Below are positions 2,412-19,514 of a DNA stretch of 19,514 nucleotides, piece after piece; the stretch's first letter is position 1, and each line of letters starts with the position of its first letter. The notes under the pieces are model-generated. The model saw only the letters and a list, made by a program, of their open reading frames with translations, made no database searches and was not told the DNA's origin. The DNA comes from Candidatus Altarchaeum sp. (GTDB lineage: Archaea > Altiarchaeota > Altiarchaeia > Altiarchaeales > Altiarchaeaceae). The stretch spans positions 1 to 19,514 of the forward strand of contig JAGWDQ010000119.1 of assembly GCA_018260615.1 (NCBI GenBank), in the 5' to 3' direction. The position numbers and the translations under genes were made by a program.

Positions 2412-3188
2412 TTAAATTTTCTCCAAATTCACATTCCACGCTCCGATTTTATCCTTAACAATTATGCAAATTCCGTAAATTTCCTTAAATTTCTTTCCGA
2501 GTTCAATAACATCCTTAATGCTCTCTTCATCGTTTTTAACTAAATTTCCAAGTGATGTCGCGAATGCGTCTGCAATTGCCGGACTATTTGCTATAATTGT
2601 TGTCGCATCGCTGTCTCCGAAACTCACAGACAGCCCGACAGAAGACGAAGATGTGCATATACCTAAAATTTTGTCAGGGAATAATTTTGCCGGATTTAAC
2701 GATATAAAAAATTTGTTTGAAAAGGGCGAATTTCCTGCATAAATTTTTACCTTAAAATTCCTGTCTCCGAACAGAGCAATATCTCCTCCGTTTTCGATAA
2801 GCCCGGCATCAAATCCGAATTCAATACACTTCCCGCACAAAATTTCTGATATTGCTCCTGCAACACCTGCCATCGGACCGACATTTGCTGTCTTTGAGGA
2901 ACATACCATCAGTTTAATTATATCGGGTGCATCATTAATTTCAGCATTTTGAAAATCTCCCGAGTGGAACGAAGTGAGCGGAACGAAGTGAGCGGAAGTG
3001 AGGTGATTAATTTCAACCGGTTCAAGAGAATACTTAAACAACAAATTTTTTACTATTTCTTTCTCTATTTTGCTCCTTTCCCCGACAACCACTCTGAAAA
3101 TTTCTCTGAAAATTTCCTCGTCCTCTGTTATTGCATTGTTTTTGTATAAAGATATATTCAGGTTTGTGTTTTTATAGGTTAGATACAT
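2412..3188 (-). CDS. UPF0280 family (ApbE-like) protein carrying a 24-aa in-frame insertion
   Basis: Motifs SLEPV, VGPMAGVAGAISE, IENGGDIAL, GICTSSSSVGLSVSFGDSDATTI and ADAFATSLGN. Confidence 0.9.
   Translation of the reverse strand: MYLTYKNTNLNISLYKNNAITEDEEIFREIFRVVVGERSKIEKEIVKNLLFKYSLEPVEINHLTSAHFVPLTSFHSGDFQNAEINDAPDIIKLMVCSSKTANVGPMAGVAGAISEILCGKCIEFGFDAGLIENGGDIALFGDRNFKVKIYAGNSPFSNKFFISLNPAKLFPDKILGICTSSSSVGLSVSFGDSDATTIIANSPAIADAFATSLGNLVKNDEESIKDVIELGKKFKEIYGICIIVKDKIGAWNVNLEKI
2934..3015 (-). mobile_element. 72-bp in-frame inserted element with a 10-bp flanking direct repeat (MITE/palindromic-element-like)
   Basis: ATTAATTTCA occurs at 2934-2943 and 3006-3015, 72 bp apart. The interior has 2 exact copies of GGAACGAAGTGAGC (2966-2993) and shares sequence blocks with 12573-12605. 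Confidence 0.7.
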
Positions 3189-7546: not shown

Positions 7547-7633
7547 TTTAAAATTTAATAATGCCTTTATAATTAGTATTAATTCCAATTTAATGTGTTT
7601 GGTAAAATTTTGGCAAAAATTTAACTTGATAAA

Positions 7634-8846: not shown

Positions 8847-11432
8847 TTATTCAATCATCCCGATTTCTCCGTCCTTCGGTTCAAAGATTTTTCCCTCTCT
8901 TTTCGCATTTTCAACGAAATTTTTTGCATCCTTTTCGTCAATTCCCTGCTCTATTGCCTGCTTAACAAAGTCCTGTATGAAACAGTGTTTCTTTCCGTTT
9001 TCGGTGAGGTATTCTAAAATTTCCGACAGGTTCTTTATTTTGTCTCTCTTTTCTTTCGGTCCGTAAGATATTCTGTCAACATCTATTTTTCCTGTTTCTT
9101 TATCTCTTGCGATAAGATTCATTGAATATTCCATCAGGCGAATTGCCCTGTTAACATCATCTTCTTCAACAACATTTCTCAGTCGCATTTTTGCACTTGC
9201 ACAACTTATTCGTATTATGCCCTCAAGTTGTCTTGCAGTGATTTGCACCACATCCTTACTGCTTTCTCTTCTTAACTGCAAATAATATTCTTCTATTTTC
9301 TTTTGTGCAACCTCCCCTAACACAGGATTTAAATTTTTTCTCGCATAAGCAATGTACTTTCTTATAAACTCAATATCTATCGGCGGGATAAGTTGTTCCT
9401 CTTTCTTTCCGGAATATGCCATAAGTACATACTTTGCAACCCCCTTGTCTTGTGTACTGTCCATAATATCCCTAAGAGGAAAAATTAAGTCAAATCTAGA
9501 CAACAATGTCGGAGGAATGTTAAACTGGTCAGCTATTGCTTTTTCGCTTGAAAATCTTCCGAATTTCGGATTTGCCGCTGCAAGCACGCATGTTTCCGCT
9601 CTGAATTTTGCAACGATACCTGCCTTCGCGATGGATATGGTTTGCTGCTCTAAGGCCTCATGCATTGCCGCCCTATCTTCATCTTCCATTTTGTCAAATT
9701 CATCAATACAATTATGTACAACAACACTGTCTGTCAGGAAATTATTGTTTCCCGGAACAAATAAGTCATAAACAAACCCTTCATAATGGAACTCGTTGAT
9801 TTCAATGATTTTATTATTCCCCCAATCGGCAACTGCATCTTCTCCTGCGGAAAATTTCTCTGCGGGTTTCCATTCCATTGTGTTGCCATCAAGCAGGAGA
9901 TGGTCAGGTGTTAATTTTATTGAAGAATTATTTTTAAATTTTATCTCCAGCATATTTTCTTTATAAAATTTTCTTCTGATTCTTGTGGCGGTGCTTTCTT
10001 CTACTGAAAGTTCGTCTATATTGTACGAAACAACTGTTAAATTAATCTCTTTAATTTCTTGTATCTCATTAAATTTATCTCGTGCGAGAATATATTCGCC
10101 ATCAAATAGTTCCTCTATTTCTTTTACCTTTCCATTAACTAAAACATTTGTTTTTGGATGTAAGCATGCCAAGCCCCCGGATGCCAATACTAATGCCCCT
10201 GCTTTTAGCACCCACGCACCTTCCGCAAATTCATCTTTCTCTGCGGTAGCAGTCAAGCCGGCTGCACTTGTACCCTTTCCGCTGACATATATACTTTTCG
10301 GTGCAATATTGCTCGCACCAATCAGCAATTTTGACTTTGCAACCCCCGGATCACCGATTAACAACAAATGTGTTTCTCCCCTTGTTTTTGTTTTATCCGG
10401 AAGTTCAAATTTACTCCCTCCGAATAACTGCAATGCCATCACCTCTTTAATTTCTTTATATCCGTATATTGTCGGACTGATAGAACTTACAAATTTTTCA
10501 ACAACATCCGGCGACTTCGCAAATTCCTTTATTTTTTTAATGTCATCTTCCGATAAATCAACCTCTATAAATTCCCTGTCAATGACATTAACATTATTTG
10601 CATCAATAAATTTCCTGTAAACCGCATCATTTATATTTTTCGGAGGAATTAATTTCATCACTCCCGCTACATTTATTATATTTCCCGGCAGTACTTTTCC
10701 GGTTAAATCATCAGTCAGCCATATTTCTATCTTTCTGGCTTCTTCACCACCCCTGAGTACCTCCAGCGGCTCCTGAATCTCTAATCGCTGGATATCCAGA
10801 AATTTACTTTCTTCCGGAAGCAGTTTAAATTTAACTGTTTTTTTGCAGTCGTCACATACGGAAGGAACAACCAAATTTCTGTTTTTTTCCTGATATATCT
10901 CTTTTCTTTTCCCGCATATCGGACACTGAAAAACCCCGACATAAACCTTCGGAAGAACATCACTCACTCTCGTAATAACCCCATCCACGCAAAAAAATTT
11001 ATTTATATATTCGCTTGTTACATCTCGTATATTCACATTAAAGCCCTTAGGCAACATAAACCTGACATGAAATTGGACATCGCCTTCAAAATTTACAGGA
11101 GTATTTTGTTCATTAACCGCTTCTTCAAAAAGTCGTATTACTTTATCCGGGAAGTCAACCAGTTCATCGCATAATTGTGCATTAAATTTAAACAATTCGG
11201 AATAATCAACAAGCAGGGACTTCTTTTTCGGATAGTCCTTTGCAACCTCTAAAAGAGCGTCCTTTTTCAGAGTAATAAATTTCTCTGCTAACGACTTTAT
11301 TTTGTCCTCCGGCATACTTTCTCCGGAATTAGTTATGCTTTCTGCCTCTGCAAAGTTATCCTCTGCAAATTCATCAACAGTATTGCCCGTATTATCCTTA
11401 ATATCCGCATTATTCTTATTTGTCTTGCTCAT
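8847..11432 (-). CDS. mcm: Replicative MCM helicase containing a mini-intein
   Basis: Zn finger CPIC...CDDC, Walker A GDPGVAKS, SGKGTSAAGLTA, Walker B CIDEFDKM, EALEQQTISIAKAG, AAANP and arginine finger LLSRFDL. Likely start ATG 11432 (ORF track TTG 11438). Confidence 0.97.
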   Translation of the reverse strand: MSKTNKNNADIKDNTGNTVDEFAEDNFAEAESITNSGESMPEDKIKSLAEKFITLKKDALLEVAKDYPKKKSLLVDYSELFKFNAQLCDELVDFPDKVIRLFEEAVNEQNTPVNFEGDVQFHVRFMLPKGFNVNIRDVTSEYINKFFCVDGVITRVSDVLPKVYVGVFQCPICGKRKEIYQEKNRNLVVPSVCDDCKKTVKFKLLPEESKFLDIQRLEIQEPLEVLRGGEEARKIEIWLTDDLTGKVLPGNIINVAGVMKLIPPKNINDAVYRKFIDANNVNVIDREFIEVDLSEDDIKKIKEFAKSPDVVEKFVSSISPTIYGYKEIKEVMALQLFGGSKFELPDKTKTRGETHLLLIGDPGVAKSKLLIGASNIAPKSIYVSGKGTSAAGLTATAEKDEFAEGAWVLKAGALVLASGGLACLHPKTNVLVNGKVKEIEELFDGEYILARDKFNEIQEIKEINLTVVSYNIDELSVEESTATRIRRKFYKENMLEIKFKNNSSIKLTPDHLLLDGNTMEWKPAEKFSAGEDAVADWGNNKIIEINEFHYEGFVYDLFVPGNNNFLTDSVVVHNCIDEFDKMEDEDRAAMHEALEQQTISIAKAGIVAKFRAETCVLAAANPKFGRFSSEKAIADQFNIPPTLLSRFDLIFPLRDIMDSTQDKGVAKYVLMAYSGKKEEQLIPPIDIEFIRKYIAYARKNLNPVLGEVAQKKIEEYYLQLRRESSKDVVQITARQLEGIIRISCASAKMRLRNVVEEDDVNRAIRLMEYSMNLIARDKETGKIDVDRISYGPKEKRDKIKNLSEILEYLTENGKKHCFIQDFVKQAIEQGIDEKDAKNFVENAKREGKIFEPKDGEIGMIE
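9711..10166 (-). mobile_element. 152-aa mini-intein (no homing endonuclease) immediately before MCM Walker B
   Basis: ...LASGGLA | CLHPKTNV ... KLTPDHLL (block B TxxH) ... VYDLFV ... VVVHN | CIDEFDKM. Removing it restores the contiguous GGLACIDEFDKM. Confidence 0.95.
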
Positions 11433-11438
11433 TATCAA

Positions 11439-11579: not shown

Positions 11580-14066
11580 ATGACAAAAGAACAAAAATTT
11601 TATAAAGCATTACAGGATGTCTTTATCGGCGCTAAGATTGAAGGCAAAGGCGGATTTATCAATCTGATGCGAATAAAATCAGGATATTATTCCCAGATAG
11701 AAAGACAGCTTCAAAAAGATATAGATAACGCATTAGAAAAGCATCCGGCTTTCAGGAACGAACTTTTTGACAAATTATACTCTTTTTTTAGCAGATATTT
11801 TACGGAAAACGGCTCAATTTATTTCAATTCAACGCCATTTCATAACAACATCTACGAAAAGGTTTATACCGATGAAAAAGATGTCATTCTCTTCTGGAAA
11901 ACGCAGATGCTTTACTATGTCAAAACAGACAGGATTTTCAGGACTGTGCCTGTTGAATTTGACGGATTAAATTTTTATTTTGATGCCTCAAAGATAGAAA
12001 ACAAAAAAGCCAATGAAAAACGCAATATTATTTTTGAATTTTACAAATTGCAGGAAGACGGGACGATTATTTTTTCTGTTGCTTATTCTGAAAAGGGCAG
12101 AATAACGAAACAAGACGAAATATTGAAGGCACTGAAACAAAAAGGAATTATAATAACCGGAGAGCAATTGGAAAAAGCTTTTAAGGTATTTGAAAAACAA
12201 AGTGAAGTGGATTTTTTCATCAACAAAAATGCCAAAGCGTTTTTGCAGGAACAGTTTAAACTTTGGAGCTATCAGTATTTCTGGGACGGGGCAAAGGACT
12301 GGGGTGCGGATAGAGTTAATCAACTGCAAACCTTAAAGGATATTGCTTTCAAAGTTATTGATTTTATCAGCCAGTTTGAAGACGAACTGGTAAAAATCTG
12401 GAATAAGCCAAAATTTGTAAGAAACTCAAATTATGTGATTACTTTGGACAGGATAAAAGACAAAAAGCTGATTGAAAAAATACTCAAAGCGGATGGAGTA
12501 AAATCGCAGATTAAAGAATGGCAGGGCTTGGGAATTATAGATGAAAACTTTAAAGTAAAAGATGTTTTTGAAAATCACCTCACTTCGTTCGGAGATTTTT
12601 CAAATCTCTGCGATTTGAAAAATGGTTTAGAAGGCGAATATTTGAACAAAAAATACGAGCATTTGCCAATTGATACCATATATTTTAAGGACTTAGAAAT
12701 AGAAATTTTGTCTTTGTTTGACAACCTTGACGAATCACTTGATGGCTGGTTGATAAAAAGCGAAAACTATCAGGCATTAAATACAATCCTGCCAAAATTT
12801 AAAGAAAAGGTGCAGACAATTTATATTGATCCGCCGTTTAATACGGGGGAAGATTTTCCTTATGTAGATAGGTTTCAAGATTCAAGCTGGCTGAGTTTGA
12901 TGGAAAATAGAATAAGAATAGCAAAACAATTTTTGTATAAAATAGGAAGTTATTATTTACATTTAGATTCAAATGCGGATTATTATGGAAAAATTTTGTT
13001 AGACAATGTATTTGGAGAAGATAATTTTAGGACAAAAATTACTTGGAAAAGACATACAGGTCCTAAAATACAATCTTTGCATTTTCCCAATATTTCCGAT
13101 TTTATTTTAGTTTACTCAAATAATGAAGGAAAGTGGATATATAATCCTCAATATTTACCATATAAAAAAGAATACTTAGAAAAAATGTATAGATATAAAG
13201 ATAAGAAAGGGACATATAGGATACACGATTTATATGCTCCGGGCGAAGGCCCAGCAAGATTATTTAATGGCAATAAAATTGAACCACCAAAAAGACATCA
13301 CTGGAGTTATACTCAAGATAAAATAGACGAAATGATTAAAGAAGGTGTGATATTTTTTGATAATCGGGGATTTCCAAAATTGAAAGTATATTTGGGAAAA
13401 GGAGAACAAGCAACTAATATTTGGACAGATATAAATGTAATTCAAGGAAGTTCCACTGAGTTCTCAAATTTTCAGACACAAAAACCCGAAAGATTATTAG
13501 CAAGAATATTAGAAGCATCTACTATCAAAGGTAGTTTAATTTTAGACTTCTTCCTCGGCTCTGGCACAACAACCGCAGTGGCGCATAAACTCGGCAGGCG
13601 ATGGCTCGGCGTGGAGATGGGAGAACATTTTTATACCGTAGTTTTACCAAGAATGAAAAAGGTCTTGGCTTATGATAAATCCGGCATCTCAAAGGATGTA
13701 AAAGAATATAAAGGTGGTGGCTTCTTCAAATACTACGAAATTGAACAATACGAAGAAGCGCTGGCAAACTGCAAATATTCTGATGGTAATATATTCACAA
13801 AACCAACCGCATCTTCGTATCAGGAATATGTTTTTATGAAAGATGAGAAAATGCTTTCTGTGTTGGAAATTGATTACAAGAAAAACAAAGTGGAAGTAGA
13901 TTTATCAAAACTCTACTCTGACATTGATATTGCCGAAACTTTATCTAATTTAACTGGCAAATGGATAAAGAGAATTTCAGATGACAAAGTAGAATTTACC
14001 GACGGGACAAAAATAAATACAAATGACTTGGATTACAAACTCATTAAGTCCTTAATCTGGTGGTAA
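11580..14066 (+). CDS. mod: Type III restriction-modification DNA methyltransferase (Mod, beta class)
   Basis: 828 aa. Motif IV IYIDPPFNTG (DPPF at 12828) precedes motif I ILDFFLGSGTT (about 13545), with TQKPERLL in between. The stop is 1 nt upstream of the res ATG. Confidence 0.93.
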   Translation: MTKEQKFYKALQDVFIGAKIEGKGGFINLMRIKSGYYSQIERQLQKDIDNALEKHPAFRNELFDKLYSFFSRYFTENGSIYFNSTPFHNNIYEKVYTDEKDVILFWKTQMLYYVKTDRIFRTVPVEFDGLNFYFDASKIENKKANEKRNIIFEFYKLQEDGTIIFSVAYSEKGRITKQDEILKALKQKGIIITGEQLEKAFKVFEKQSEVDFFINKNAKAFLQEQFKLWSYQYFWDGAKDWGADRVNQLQTLKDIAFKVIDFISQFEDELVKIWNKPKFVRNSNYVITLDRIKDKKLIEKILKADGVKSQIKEWQGLGIIDENFKVKDVFENHLTSFGDFSNLCDLKNGLEGEYLNKKYEHLPIDTIYFKDLEIEILSLFDNLDESLDGWLIKSENYQALNTILPKFKEKVQTIYIDPPFNTGEDFPYVDRFQDSSWLSLMENRIRIAKQFLYKIGSYYLHLDSNADYYGKILLDNVFGEDNFRTKITWKRHTGPKIQSLHFPNISDFILVYSNNEGKWIYNPQYLPYKKEYLEKMYRYKDKKGTYRIHDLYAPGEGPARLFNGNKIEPPKRHHWSYTQDKIDEMIKEGVIFFDNRGFPKLKVYLGKGEQATNIWTDINVIQGSSTEFSNFQTQKPERLLARILEASTIKGSLILDFFLGSGTTTAVAHKLGRRWLGVEMGEHFYTVVLPRMKKVLAYDKSGISKDVKEYKGGGFFKYYEIEQYEEALANCKYSDGNIFTKPTASSYQEYVFMKDEKMLSVLEIDYKKNKVEVDLSKLYSDIDIAETLSNLTGKWIKRISDDKVEFTDGTKINTNDLDYKLIKSLIWW
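12576..12623 (+). mobile_element. 48-bp in-frame inserted element with a 12-bp perfect hairpin (same family as 2934-3015)
   Basis: CACCTCACTTCGTTCGGAGATTTTTCAAATCTCTGCGATTTGAAAAAT. Stem ATTTTTCAAATC (12595-12606) pairs with GATTTGAAAAAT (12612-12623). Encodes HLTSFGDFSNLCDLKN. Confidence 0.65.
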
Positions 14067-14067
14067 A

Positions 14068-17052
14068 ATGGCAGAGAAAAAAGACGAAAAAATTACAAAA
14101 ACAAAAGGAATACTTGAAAAAATTGTAAATAACATTTCTTTTGCTCACCTGCCTGCAAAATGGCAGGGGTTTGACTTTGGTAAATTTTCTCAAAATAAAA
14201 CGCTTTTTGATTTTCAAAAACATGGATTGCAGAATGCTCTTAAAGCACTTTATCTGTTTTATGCTGAAAAGAAGGGCGACAAAAAGTCATTTTTCAGCCA
14301 ATATCAATCCAACGGATTAGGCGAAATTTTTGATTACGACCTTAAGAAAAAACAAGACAGCAAGACCGCTAAATTTTTGTTAGAATACGACAAGGATTAT
14401 CCCGTTACTGATAACAGGATTTCGTTTGAGCATTTCATCAACAGAATGAGTTTCTGGATGGCGACTGGCTCAGGTAAAACGCTGATTATTGTCAAACTGA
14501 TTGAAATTTTAGGTAAACTGATTAAAGAAAAAGAAATACCTGCGAACGATATTTTGTTTTTGGCTCACAGAGACGATCTTTTAGAGCAATTTAAAAATCA
14601 TATAGAGCAATTTAATAGTTTTAACTTTGACACTAAAATAAATCTCAAGAACTTAAAGGACTATGAAAGCGTAAAGCACCAAAACACCATACCTTTCACA
14701 AAAAATGAGATAACTGTTTTTTATTACCGTTCTGATTTAATTTCTGACGAATCTAAAGAAAAAATTGTAAATTTCAAAAATTATGACAATTATGACAACG
14801 GTGGGAAATGGTATATCCTTTTAGATGAAGCCCATAAAGGCGACAAAGAAGACAGCAAAAGGCAAATTCTTTATTCAATCCTTTCCAGAAATGGCTTCCT
14901 TTTTAATTTCTCTGCTACTTTTACTGATCCGCGTGATTATGCAACATGTGTTTTTAATTTTAACCTTTCAAAATTTATTGAAGAAGGATATGGCAAGCAC
15001 ATTTATGTTTCCGGTTCTGAAGTAACGGCTTTCAGAGACAATAATGATTTTTCTAAGACCGAAAAGCAAAAAATTGTTTTGAAAACTCTGATACTCTTGA
15101 CTTATATTAACCAACATTTTGAAAAAGTTAGAAAAGAAAATAAAACGCTTTATCATCGCCCGCTTCTTTTAACTCTTGTTAACTCTGTTAACACAGAAGA
15201 AGCAGACTTGGAACTATTTTTCGCTGAGTTAGTGAAAATTTCCCTGGGCAGTGTTGACAATAGTTTACTGCAAAAGGCCAAAGTTGAGCTTATTGATGAA
15301 TTTGGAAATAATCCTAAATATGAGTTTGAGGAAGATAAAAGTGTTGAAATAGATAAAGAGGATATCAATCAAATTAATTACGAAGACATACTGCGACGGA
15401 TTTTAAATGCGCCCTCATCAGGAAAGATTGAAGTATTAAAAATACCTGGCAATAGACAGGAGCTCATTTTTAAGTTACAAACATCTGACAAGCCTTTTGC
15501 CTTGATTAAAATCGGCGATATTTCTAATTGGCTGAAAGATAAATTGGAAGGATATGAAATAAACGAAAGTTTTGAAAACGAAAGCTACTTCAAGAAACTC
15601 AACAAAGATGATTCTGACATAAATATCCTTATGGGTTCCCGTTCGTTTTATGAAGGATGGGATTCTAACAGGCCAAATCTCGTTTTGTTTGTGAATATTG
15701 GTATAGGACACGACGCGAAGAAGTTTGTTCTGCAGTCAGTAGGAAGGGGTGTGCGAATAGAACCGCAAAAAAATAAACGCAAAAGAATTTTAAATTTATT
15801 TAATGCAAAGGAAATAGACACGGAATTATTTAATAAAGTAGAACATTCTGTTTTACCTCTTGAAAGCTTGTTTATTTTTGGAACAAACGCAGAAAATATT
15901 AAAGAAATAATGAATGTCCTGAAAACAGAAAAAGGTGAAGAAAAGGACTTGGGAAATTTGTTCAGCATCAATGAAGAGGCAGAGAAACACACTCTTCTTA
16001 TTCCGGTCTATAAAGATGCAGATAAAATAATTGCTGAAGAGCAGAAACCTCAGAAATACCCAATAAGCAAAGACGACCTTGAATTGGCGAGTTTGTATTT
16101 TACTTATTTGGGTGAAAAAATCGCTTTAGTTAAATACGAATGTGAGCCAAAAGTTTTAGAAACTATAAAAAAAAGCATCCGGAACAATAGTGAAAAAGAA
16201 AAAAGGTACGATTTTGCAGAAACGAGATCAATTGCTGAGCCCGAATTACTAATTGACCGTATATTAGATTATTTCAGTATGAAGATGCGTGAATTTGAGA
16301 CCTTTAAAAAACTTGAAAATGAAATAGTGCATTTTAAAAATATCAAATTTACAGGTAGCAATGATGAATATGAGAATCTAAAAAAGAAAATAGAAGGAAT
16401 AAAACAATATCCTGAAAAAGAAAAAGAACTTGATGAACAATATGGAAAGATTCCCAGAGAAGAATTTGCCAGAAAACAAATGAGCTTATTCGATTTTGGA
16501 AGTTTTGAATTGAAAAACCAAAAAATTAAAATCAGGTATTTAGTTAATCATTATTATCTGCCTGTAATCGTTTCTGAAAAGGATAAAGTGGATTATCTCA
16601 ATCATATTATTGATGTGAAAAGTGAGATTGATTTTATAAACAAGCTTGAAACGCATCTTGAAAGAAGTAATAACACTTTCAGGCAATTTGACTGGTGGAT
16701 GTTTTCCAAACTGGATGAAACAATAGATGAAGTGCATATTCCGTATTACAGCCCAAACGAGAACGCAATGGCAAAATTTAAGCCGGACTTTATTTTTTGG
16801 ATGCAGAAAGGGAACGAATACCTTATTTTGTTTGTTGATCCAAAAGGAACGATTTTTGCTGACTACCAGCAGAAGGTGGATGGACATAAAGAGATTTTTG
16901 GGAATAAAGTTTTTCAGCATAAGGGACAAAATATTTCTGTCAAATTGCTTTTCTATACAAATGATATTTCTAAGGTTGGAGAAAGTTACAGAAAATATTG
17001 GTTTGATAATTTTACTGATTTTGAAAATAAAATTAAGGAGGTTATATCTTGA
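14068..17052 (+). CDS. res: Type III restriction endonuclease/helicase subunit (Res)
   Basis: 994 aa with Walker A MATGSGKT, DEAH box LLDEAHKG, FSATF, EGWD, QSVGRGVR and C-terminal PD-(D/E)xK nuclease FKPDFIF...FVDPKG. Confidence 0.93.
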   Translation: MAEKKDEKITKTKGILEKIVNNISFAHLPAKWQGFDFGKFSQNKTLFDFQKHGLQNALKALYLFYAEKKGDKKSFFSQYQSNGLGEIFDYDLKKKQDSKTAKFLLEYDKDYPVTDNRISFEHFINRMSFWMATGSGKTLIIVKLIEILGKLIKEKEIPANDILFLAHRDDLLEQFKNHIEQFNSFNFDTKINLKNLKDYESVKHQNTIPFTKNEITVFYYRSDLISDESKEKIVNFKNYDNYDNGGKWYILLDEAHKGDKEDSKRQILYSILSRNGFLFNFSATFTDPRDYATCVFNFNLSKFIEEGYGKHIYVSGSEVTAFRDNNDFSKTEKQKIVLKTLILLTYINQHFEKVRKENKTLYHRPLLLTLVNSVNTEEADLELFFAELVKISLGSVDNSLLQKAKVELIDEFGNNPKYEFEEDKSVEIDKEDINQINYEDILRRILNAPSSGKIEVLKIPGNRQELIFKLQTSDKPFALIKIGDISNWLKDKLEGYEINESFENESYFKKLNKDDSDINILMGSRSFYEGWDSNRPNLVLFVNIGIGHDAKKFVLQSVGRGVRIEPQKNKRKRILNLFNAKEIDTELFNKVEHSVLPLESLFIFGTNAENIKEIMNVLKTEKGEEKDLGNLFSINEEAEKHTLLIPVYKDADKIIAEEQKPQKYPISKDDLELASLYFTYLGEKIALVKYECEPKVLETIKKSIRNNSEKEKRYDFAETRSIAEPELLIDRILDYFSMKMREFETFKKLENEIVHFKNIKFTGSNDEYENLKKKIEGIKQYPEKEKELDEQYGKIPREEFARKQMSLFDFGSFELKNQKIKIRYLVNHYYLPVIVSEKDKVDYLNHIIDVKSEIDFINKLETHLERSNNTFRQFDWWMFSKLDETIDEVHIPYYSPNENAMAKFKPDFIFWMQKGNEYLILFVDPKGTIFADYQQKVDGHKEIFGNKVFQHKGQNISVKLLFYTNDISKVGESYRKYWFDNFTDFENKIKEVIS

Positions 17053-18588: not shown

Positions 18589-18828
18589 TTAGATGTTTTT
18601 TGTTTTTATTTCCGAAATGATATTTGAAATTTTATTTACTCTGTCAGCAAGTCCTAATTTGAAATATAAATTCTTTGCATTTTCATAACAGGCAATTGCT
18701 TTGTTTATATTTCCAATCTTTCTATATATAATCCCTAAATTTTCATAAGCAATTGCCAAAGAATGTATATCTCCGAGATTTTTAAAATTATTTTCTGCCT
18801 CTTTAAAAATATTTATTGCTTCAGCCCA
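18589..18828 (-). pseudogene. Out-of-frame C-terminal continuation (79 aa) of the TPR gene after a 1-nt deletion
   Basis: Reads WAEAINIFKEAENNFKNLGDIHSLAIAYENLGIIYRKIGNINKAIACYENAKNLYFKLGLADRVNKISNIISEIKTKNI*, i.e. one more TPR plus a capping helix. Only 5 nt (18829-18833) separate the Q and W codons, where other repeats have 6. Confidence 0.85.
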
Positions 18829-19514
18829 TTTTCCTGATTTTTGTAAACCACACCCAAATTTGTCAATGATGCAGAATATCCCTGCATATCTCCTAATTTT
18901 TTAAAAATTTCCATGGATTCCTTAAAATGGCTTATTGCATCATCCCATTTTTCCTGATTTGCATAAATTATACCTAAATTTGTCAGTGATGCAGAATATC
19001 CCTGCATATCTCCCAATTTTTTCTTAATTTCCATAGATTCCTTAAAATTGCTTGTTGCTTCATCCCATTTTCCCTGATACATATAAACCAAACCTAAATT
19101 CATCAATGATTTAGAATATCCATGCACATCTCCTAATTTTTTCTTAATTTCCATAGATTCCTTAAAATGGCTTATTGCTTCATCCCATTTTCCCTGATCC
19201 ATATAAACCGAACCTAAATTTCCCAATGATTTAGAATATCCCTGCATATCTCCTAATTTTTTATCAATTTCCATAGATTCCTTAAAATGGCTTATTGCTT
19301 CATCCCATTTTCCCTGATTTTTGTAAACCACACCCAAATTTGTCAATGATGCAGAATATCCCTGTATATCTCCTAATTTTTTCTTAATTTCCATGGATTC
19401 CTTAAAATGGCTTATTGCTTCATCCCATTTTCCCTGATCCATATAAACCGAACCTAAATTTCCCAATGATTTAGAATATCCCTGCATATCTCCTAATTTT
19501 TTATCAATTTCCAT
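18721..19514 (-). repeat. 120-bp tandem repeat array (about 6 highly similar units plus 1 diverged unit)
   Basis: Sequence blocks recur at a 120-bp period. 19201-19274 is identical to 19441-19514, giving a 240-bp higher-order period. Confidence 0.95.
18813..19514 (-). CDS. Tetratricopeptide-repeat protein, 40-aa repeat type (5' end outside window, frameshifted near 18830)
   Basis: Six near-identical repeats of type MEIxKKLGDxQGYSxSLxNLGxVYxxQGKWDEAISHFKES. Confidence 0.9.
   Translation of the reverse strand: MEIDKKLGDMQGYSKSLGNLGSVYMDQGKWDEAISHFKESMEIKKKLGDIQGYSASLTNLGVVYKNQGKWDEAISHFKESMEIDKKLGDMQGYSKSLGNLGSVYMDQGKWDEAISHFKESMEIKKKLGDVHGYSKSLMNLGLVYMYQGKWDEATSNFKESMEIKKKLGDMQGYSASLTNLGIIYANQEKWDDAISHFKESMEIFKKLGDMQGYSASLTNLGVVYKNQENGLKQ

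Follow-up and report, generated by a model that had tools for sequence, protein, structure and literature searches.

The window considered here is a 19,514-nucleotide stretch of Altiarchaeum DNA from a genome assembly of 2.23 Mb (148 contigs, 33% G+C, 87% complete). Its host is a groundwater archaeon, assigned to Candidatus Altiarchaeum by neighbouring genes (MCM, Trm56) and by named matches. On the forward strand it carries a type III restriction-modification system, consisting of the methyltransferase Mod (11580..14066; an intact ORF of 828 residues, Pfam PF01555, E 2.4e-38) and the helicase/nuclease subunit Res (14068..17052; an intact 994-residue ORF, whose counterpart in L001 has ResIII/SWI2_SNF2). 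The reverse strand encodes a UPF0280/ApbE-like protein of 258 residues (2412..3188), homologues of which carry PF27030. Within Mod, residues 333-348 are an insert; the N6_N4_Mtase domain begins about 60 residues further on, at residue 411.

The preliminary description had proposed that this insert and another in the UPF0280 gene are copies of one element, and the shared blocks, their order, the common frame, the stem and the bounding words were all confirmed on the sequence. The 14-mer AATCACCTCACTTC is found at 12573-12586 (+) and 2995-3008 (-), the 12-mer CTCACTTCGTTC at 12579-12590 (+) and twice within the UPF0280 insert (2967 and 2981, -), and GGAGATTTT comes next in order in both copies, which are sense to their host genes and begin in the same frame (N-H-L-T-S). 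The Mod unit is bounded by TTTGAAAAT (12567-12575) and TTTGAAAAAT (12614-12623). DNA folding of 12560-12635 gives, at 12595-12623, a perfect stem of 12 bp closed by a 5-nt loop; at -9.4 to -9.9 kcal/mol this hairpin is only 1.7 standard deviations better than shuffled sequences (z = -1.7), and taken alone it is therefore unremarkable in AT-rich DNA.

The segment as a whole (12574..12623, +) is a 48-bp unit of a family of two-hairpin repeats, delimited by a 16-codon gap in homologues and by an nhmmer match at 12575-12621 (E 1.3e-14). Two registers, 12574-12621 and 12576-12623, are possible for the inserted 48 bp, the former (ATCACC...GAAA) being common to the other gene insertions. Hairpin 1 (12574..12596, +) is a conserved imperfect stem-loop of the form AT-N-A-CC / loop with the core TCACTTCGTTC / GG-A-N'-AT, defined by covariation, and hairpin 2 (12595..12623, +) is a variable palindrome, represented here by the perfect stem. 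Compared to the commonest unit of 46 nt, the Mod unit has an extra T in its left arm and an extra A in its right, a symmetrical addition by which, at 48 nt, it fits the reading frame.

A search with Mod residues 200-560 yielded thousands of homologues, the best 13 of which were aligned. Twelve of these 13 have an exact gap of 16 residues, such that removal of the 48 bp restores the reading of the homologues, as had been predicted: DVFEN, the 16 inserted residues and GLEGEYLNKKYEHLPIDT in the window stand against, for example, DVFENDLTGKHLSKKYEHLPIDT in a homologue without the insert. Among the 13, no homologue from an unrelated taxon carried it; the sole carrier (P0014) is encoded on a 92.6-kb metagenome contig which is syntenic with the window and ~95-99% identical to it, indicating another strain of one species, with the 48 bp unchanged. 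The nearest insert-free homologues (P0003 and P0005) lie in unrelated gene neighbourhoods. In a sister species (G003), the same MCM-Mod-Res order surrounds an empty site, at which GTTTTTGAAAAT is directly followed by AGTTTGGAA. As the site is empty in this species and identically filled in the P0014 strain, the Mod insertion is, by this comparison of sequences, younger than the split from the sister species and older than the divergence of the two ~96%-identical strains. The shared MCM-Mod-Res arrangement also indicates that the restriction-modification locus is old in the genus, rendering weak the earlier argument that residence in a mobile restriction-modification gene betrays recent activity. 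In the alignment, the insert region varies among homologues. The AlphaFold2 model of Mod (30 sequences) is poor, with a mean pLDDT of 64.5 and a pTM of 0.34, and in it residues 333-348 fall almost wholly into a coil of low confidence (334-351) flanked by two short strands, a predicted position that would be weakly compatible with a tolerated loop.

The UPF0280 insert (2946..3005, -; 60 bp or 20 codons in frame) does belong to the same family, with an nhmmer match at 2946-2978, but it is a decayed composite of three core-like pieces that has lost its hairpins. The best named matches of its host protein come from Ca. Altiarchaeum hamiconexum and Altiarchaeales A3, and the 60-bp insert is missing in every homologue at <=80% identity, including that of Ca. 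Altiarchaeum hamiconexum. In close strains the host protein occurs in three length alleles (258, 268 and 284 residues); two co-occurring strains have 30 and 78 bp extra at the insertion site, and the longest allele keeps three hairpins, which the window allele has lost. A 9-bp direct repeat, GAAATTAAT, flanks the insert and was considered as a target duplication; this was rejected because closer homologues already read EIN-NEIN there, making the repeat native.

Genome-wide, the 12-nt core occurs 140 times in the 2.2-Mb Altiarchaeum genome, compared to no occurrence of its reversed control, so that the similarity between the Mod and UPF0280 inserts is far beyond chance, as the preliminary description had expected, and a coincidental resemblance is ruled out. 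Three other species of the genus contain 132, 85 and 67 occurrences, and 57 other genomes of the phylum between 0 and 3. Among 185,579 species genomes searched with the hairpin-1 21-mer, only Altiarchaeum/Altiarchaeales MAGs were matched, together with one 1.3-kb contig labelled Methanoperedens. Iterated nhmmer gave 645 matches (434 at E < 1e-3), which form 369 clusters with a total of ~20.5 kb; for 66 of the clusters, a contig end is no more than 300 bp away. The units measure 42-49 bp, with peaks at 46, 48 and 47 nt, and may stand alone, follow one another in chains or in tandem 48-bp arrays, or form part of larger repeats whose flanks are the same at each recurrence. Identical units in unrelated flanks were seen in 11 cases. 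A CRISPR remnant or array was also considered and is ruled out, the 48-bp units being arranged head-to-tail without spacers.

A loose pattern matched 289 copies, in which we analysed covariation; relatedness within subfamilies inflates the counts. In hairpin 1, the outer pair N/N' is Watson-Crick in 274 of the 289 (C-G 176, A-T 84, G-C 9, T-A 5), the inner pairs covary as well (AC/GT 145, GC/GC 101, AT/AT 14, GT/AC 6), and an A.A mismatch and a TC/TC internal loop are fixed. With four pair types at one position, a pairing constraint is hard to avoid. In hairpin 2, an AT-rich palindrome, the arms measure 7-13 bp and the loop 3-9 nt; the sequence of this hairpin varies between copies, yet it is palindromic in 261 of 274.

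About 93-97% of the units are intergenic. Only 10 of the 369 clusters are spanned by an ORF that is open for >=50 codons on both sides, versus 57% of random sites, and crude gene calling (82% coding) places 29 of the 434 units within ORFs. The earlier picture of a high-copy element that enters both core and accessory genes is thus borne out, but gene insertions are rare survivors. Apart from Mod, in-frame units were found in the large subunit DP2 of DNA polymerase PolD, in aconitase, in the archaeosine tRNA-guanine transglycosylase (TGT) and, in antisense, in isoleucyl-tRNA synthetase (IleRS); further ones reside in an Fe-ADH-like dehydrogenase, RadC, a TnpB gene and an uncharacterised protein, and tandem ones in an MqnA-like protein (two units) and an NYN-domain protein (six). 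An intergenic array has five. The gene units use at least three reading frames and both orientations, and hence specify unrelated peptides (ITSLRSEIF..., FQNHGDSENL...). At all nine gene sites inspected the insert length is a multiple of three (48 bp; 42 bp in DP2), compared to 44% of units genome-wide. Since the insertions leave the reading frames intact, the units are expected to add peptides to their host proteins, in agreement with the preliminary description, and we infer translation of the inserts from the intact ORFs.

For Mod, aconitase, PolD DP2, IleRS and TGT, empty orthologous sites exist in one to three sister species (5/5 tested), and the filled sites differ from the empty ones by an exact gain of 48 bp (42 bp in DP2) in the same register. 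These five insertions therefore post-date speciation. Strains that are ~95-99% identical moreover differ in the element content of two sites, that in UPF0280 and an intergenic one. It is on these observations, rather than on the nature of the Mod gene, that the proposed recent activity of the element stands, and from the filled and empty sites of different species we infer that the units move. The gained block reads ATCACC...(G/T)AAA in a register common to all sites, with A(A/T) next in every case. The junctions are ambiguous by a single nucleotide in TGT and by 2 nt in IleRS; at 1-2 nt at most, this leaves no real target duplication. The longer flank repeats seen at Mod and aconitase are not a general feature of the copies. 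Terminal inverted repeats were not found, the ends at the four insertions defined by empty sites not being complementary.

The preliminary description had pointed to a cognate transposase of the IS200/IS605 TnpA or RAYT type, and none was found in the four Altiarchaeum genomes searched (G000-G003; 65-87% complete): the Y1/RAYT profile (PF01797) had no match in them, but matched the positive-control genomes. Nine TnpB genes are present, none flanked by units. We also considered an origin of the units from TnpB/IS605 ends and rejected it; units occur near three of the nine TnpB genes, in inconsistent positions, and one of these is the in-frame TnpB insertion. Other mobile-element genes comprise one IS110-type, two IS630-type, a few DDE_1-type and one tyrosine recombinase gene, and no units were seen beside the IS110, IS630 or DDE transposase genes or the tyrosine-recombinase region. 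Most of the IS630-, IS110-, DDE_1- and TnpB-type genes are on ~1-kb contigs, where their ends are unreadable.

Taken together, the segment in Mod is very probably one unit of an Altiarchaeum-specific family of miniature, non-coding, two-hairpin palindromic repeats that behaves as selfish DNA. A new unit arrives as a precise block directly before A(A/T), without inverted ends and without duplication beyond the 1-2 ambiguous bases. Within genes, copies would persist only if their length is a multiple of three and they contain no stops in the host frame, and those that survive would form extra surface loops. The Mod copy would be such a survivor, a unit of the 46-nt type that, with one base added per arm, reached 48 nt and added 16 residues. 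The covariation in hairpin 1 suggests recognition as folded single-stranded DNA, and we tentatively favour a putative structure-specific enzyme that recognises hairpin 1 in this form over template switching, as one possibility among several. It seems rather doubtful that the mover falls outside the known transposase classes altogether, either as an unrecognised hairpin-1 enzyme or as enzyme-free template switching that sometimes builds hairpin 2 from the target flank. Either mover, if true, would mean that a 48-bp element inserts seamlessly into essential archaeal genes.

Template switching would dispense with a dedicated enzyme: units would be copied by microhomology from an AT-rich nascent end resembling a hairpin arm, and arrays would grow by slippage. 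Aconitase offers an instance: its insert is preceded by 11-12 nt identical to the right arm of hairpin 2 and complementary to the left arm, and no other copy in the genome has this hairpin. In Mod, there is a resemblance between the flank TTTGAAAAT and the right arm, and the tandem arrays, in-frame in the MqnA-like and NYN genes as well as intergenic, are also what slippage would leave behind. In sets with unique flanks, four copies have >=7 matching nucleotides, compared to 1.3 expected (p 0.012), and the excess of flank/arm matches depends on word length, with p 0.004 for 12 nt and no significance for 8 and 10 nt (p up to 0.12). Over all copies, however, flank/arm identity equals that of permuted controls once tandem arrays are excluded, and the insertions in TGT and IleRS lack such homology beyond 1-2 nt. 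Given that the excess is weak and vanishes over all copies, microhomology may assist insertion at some sites but does not govern it in general. The stricter idea that hairpin 2 always derives from the flank of the target was rejected on three tests, holding for a few copies and not as a general rule. Template switching furthermore leaves the fixed mismatches and covarying pairs of hairpin 1 unexplained, and we regard it as an unlikely source of the family.

Much less probable still is that the units are not selfish DNA but a signal selected by the host, be it for transcription termination, RNA stability, protein binding or phase variation of mod. In its favour, phase variation is common among type III mod genes, T-runs are present in the hairpins, and the covariation implies that the structure matters to something. 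Yet the orientation of the units relative to flanking genes is even (93 versus 102), and their density per kb of spacer is similar in tandem (0.94), convergent (1.02) and divergent (0.76) arrangements, which speaks for selfish spread at the DNA level and against a terminator or a directional RNA signal. An Rfam search of the window likewise gave no match at the gathering score, and with no orientation bias and no Rfam match we rejected a terminator or directional RNA element. Copies also lie in both orientations inside essential ORFs; and as for a switch in mod, the copy is identical in two strains and a period of 48 bp is unable to shift the frame. That the insert represents a peptide module (HLTSFGDF...) under selection, passed from protein to protein for its function, is hardly credible, since the N-terminal peptide that Mod, UPF0280 and RadC have in common contrasts with ~93-97% of copies being non-coding, with gene copies in other frames or antisense that specify unrelated peptides, and with sister species devoid of the insert.

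As selfish DNA, the family stands out by an unusually small unit of 16 codons and by the genes it has entered, among them those for aconitase, an aminoacyl-tRNA synthetase and the replicative polymerase PolD. In annotation, it accounts for odd inserts of 14-20 residues and for many contig breaks in Altiarchaeum MAGs, and the units can be used as strain-level markers. The clean filled and empty sites make the movement of a 48-bp element testable.

Among known systems, in-frame palindromic repeats have been described in Rickettsia (RPE), as enterobacterial and Neisseria MITEs, and in M. jannaschii (PMC2229807). The RPE (Ogata et al. 2000, 2002), as presented there, are bacterial elements of 105-146 bp with ~12-bp terminal inverted repeats. 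Compared by description, the Altiarchaeum family shares with RPE its lineage restriction, its palindromic nature, its occurrence both between genes and in frame inside conserved, intact genes, and the lack of a known linked transposase; it differs in that its units are archaeal, measure 42-49 bp, have two hairpins and no inverted ends. It behaves like RPE at a third of their size. An archaeal parallel is provided by Methanocaldococcus jannaschii, which belongs to a different archaeal lineage from Altiarchaeum. Its MJRE (Suyama, Lathe and Bork 2005; cited in PMC2229807) are palindromic repeats with coding potential. Like the Altiarchaeum units, they are archaeal palindromic repeats some of which are fused into protein genes.

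REP, BIME and REPIN sequences, mobilised by RAYT, are imperfect palindromes of 20-40 bp that occur in hundreds of copies, clustered and mostly extragenic (PMC3733652). The Altiarchaeum units resemble REP in being very small palindromes with hundreds of mostly extragenic copies and a stem kept by compensating changes. Unlike REP, they have no GTAG/CGTC tag at the foot of the palindrome, starting with (A)T-N-ACC instead, they do not strictly avoid genes, and RAYT/Y1 was absent from the four Altiarchaeum genomes. With regard to MITEs, a census (PMC11602168) ranks Ca. Altiarchaeum hamiconexum first among archaea in density, at 146 per Mb; no description of the two-hairpin unit or its gene insertions was found in the parts consulted. 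This density fits the repeat load of the present genome. Like MITEs (Correia, ERIC, Sulfolobus SM elements), the units are short, non-autonomous and mainly intergenic, with some in frame inside genes; unlike them, they have no terminal inverted repeats and no target-site duplication. No parent IS sharing their ends was seen, most of the transposase genes lying on the ~1-kb contigs. PATEs and single-strand transposons derived from IS200/IS605 insert precisely and without duplication by a short word, and are recognisable by imperfect hairpins. The Altiarchaeum units also insert precisely, without duplication and beside a short word, and have imperfect hairpins, but they are far shorter, TnpA was not found and the TnpB genes are unflanked by units. 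The kind of element is already known (RPE, MJRE, REP-like), whereas the Altiarchaeum family appears to be undescribed in the literature searched. With it, the occurrence of selfish DNA within protein-coding genes, for which Rickettsia is the best-known case, extends to a carbon-fixing archaeon that is widespread in the subsurface.

The units also occur within coding sequence elsewhere in the source genome of the window, G000. In the N-terminal part of a gene for an NYN-domain protein (locus L011, contig C124, 1491-1776), six 48-bp units are arranged head to tail in antisense orientation and together encode an in-frame repeat of 96 residues. One of the nine TnpB genes (C42, 5410-6693) likewise carries an in-frame unit; its open reading frame comprises 428 aa, compared to 410-415 aa in six other TnpB genes, and the same unit occurs a second time, with identical flanks, on C26. 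A second repeat, composed of CACA(A/G)AG-type words, is a regular neighbour of the units on many contigs of this genome (e.g. C53:40944, C99:26124 and C110:8340), indicating that the units also serve as modules of larger composite repeats.

Beyond the Altiarchaeales, the 21-nt core of hairpin 1 had its sole genome match on L081 (JAPMTR010000103.1), a contig of 1306 bp binned as Candidatus Methanoperedens, which is probably a mis-binned Altiarchaeum fragment. An exact copy of the core, without hairpin 2, is also found on a viral contig of 48% G+C (L083, IMGVR_UViG_3300046780_000453, 9967-9987), for which we detected no similarity to G000 apart from these 21 nt; this match could be due to chance, represent a captured fragment or reflect a virus-host link.

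Comparison of the window with L001, the syntenic metagenome contig of a strain that is ~96% identical, revealed several further differences. A ~50-bp unit of the same family, with a CTCGCTTACGCT-type core, is present in L001 (2405-2460) and missing at the corresponding intergenic site of the window (7592-7599), where the junctions bear additional substitutions, so that this does not constitute a clean empty site. In the type III Mod gene, the two strains share no similarity at the nucleotide level across the centre (window 12835-13722, L001 7256-8317), whereas the flanks on both sides are 96-98% identical; judged from this pattern, it looks like a swap of the methylase target-recognition region. 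Separately, the TPR-type gene at the window end (18709-19488) contains at least five tandem 120-bp (40-codon) repeats, whose alignments are offset against the other strain. Finally, MCM (8847-11438) comprises 863 aa in the window versus 709 aa in L001, which lacks the mini-intein of ~154 residues encoded on the reverse strand at 9711-10164 (Pfam Intein_splicing, E 1.2e-13; first residue C, last residues HN, followed by C), indicating that intein presence varies within the species.
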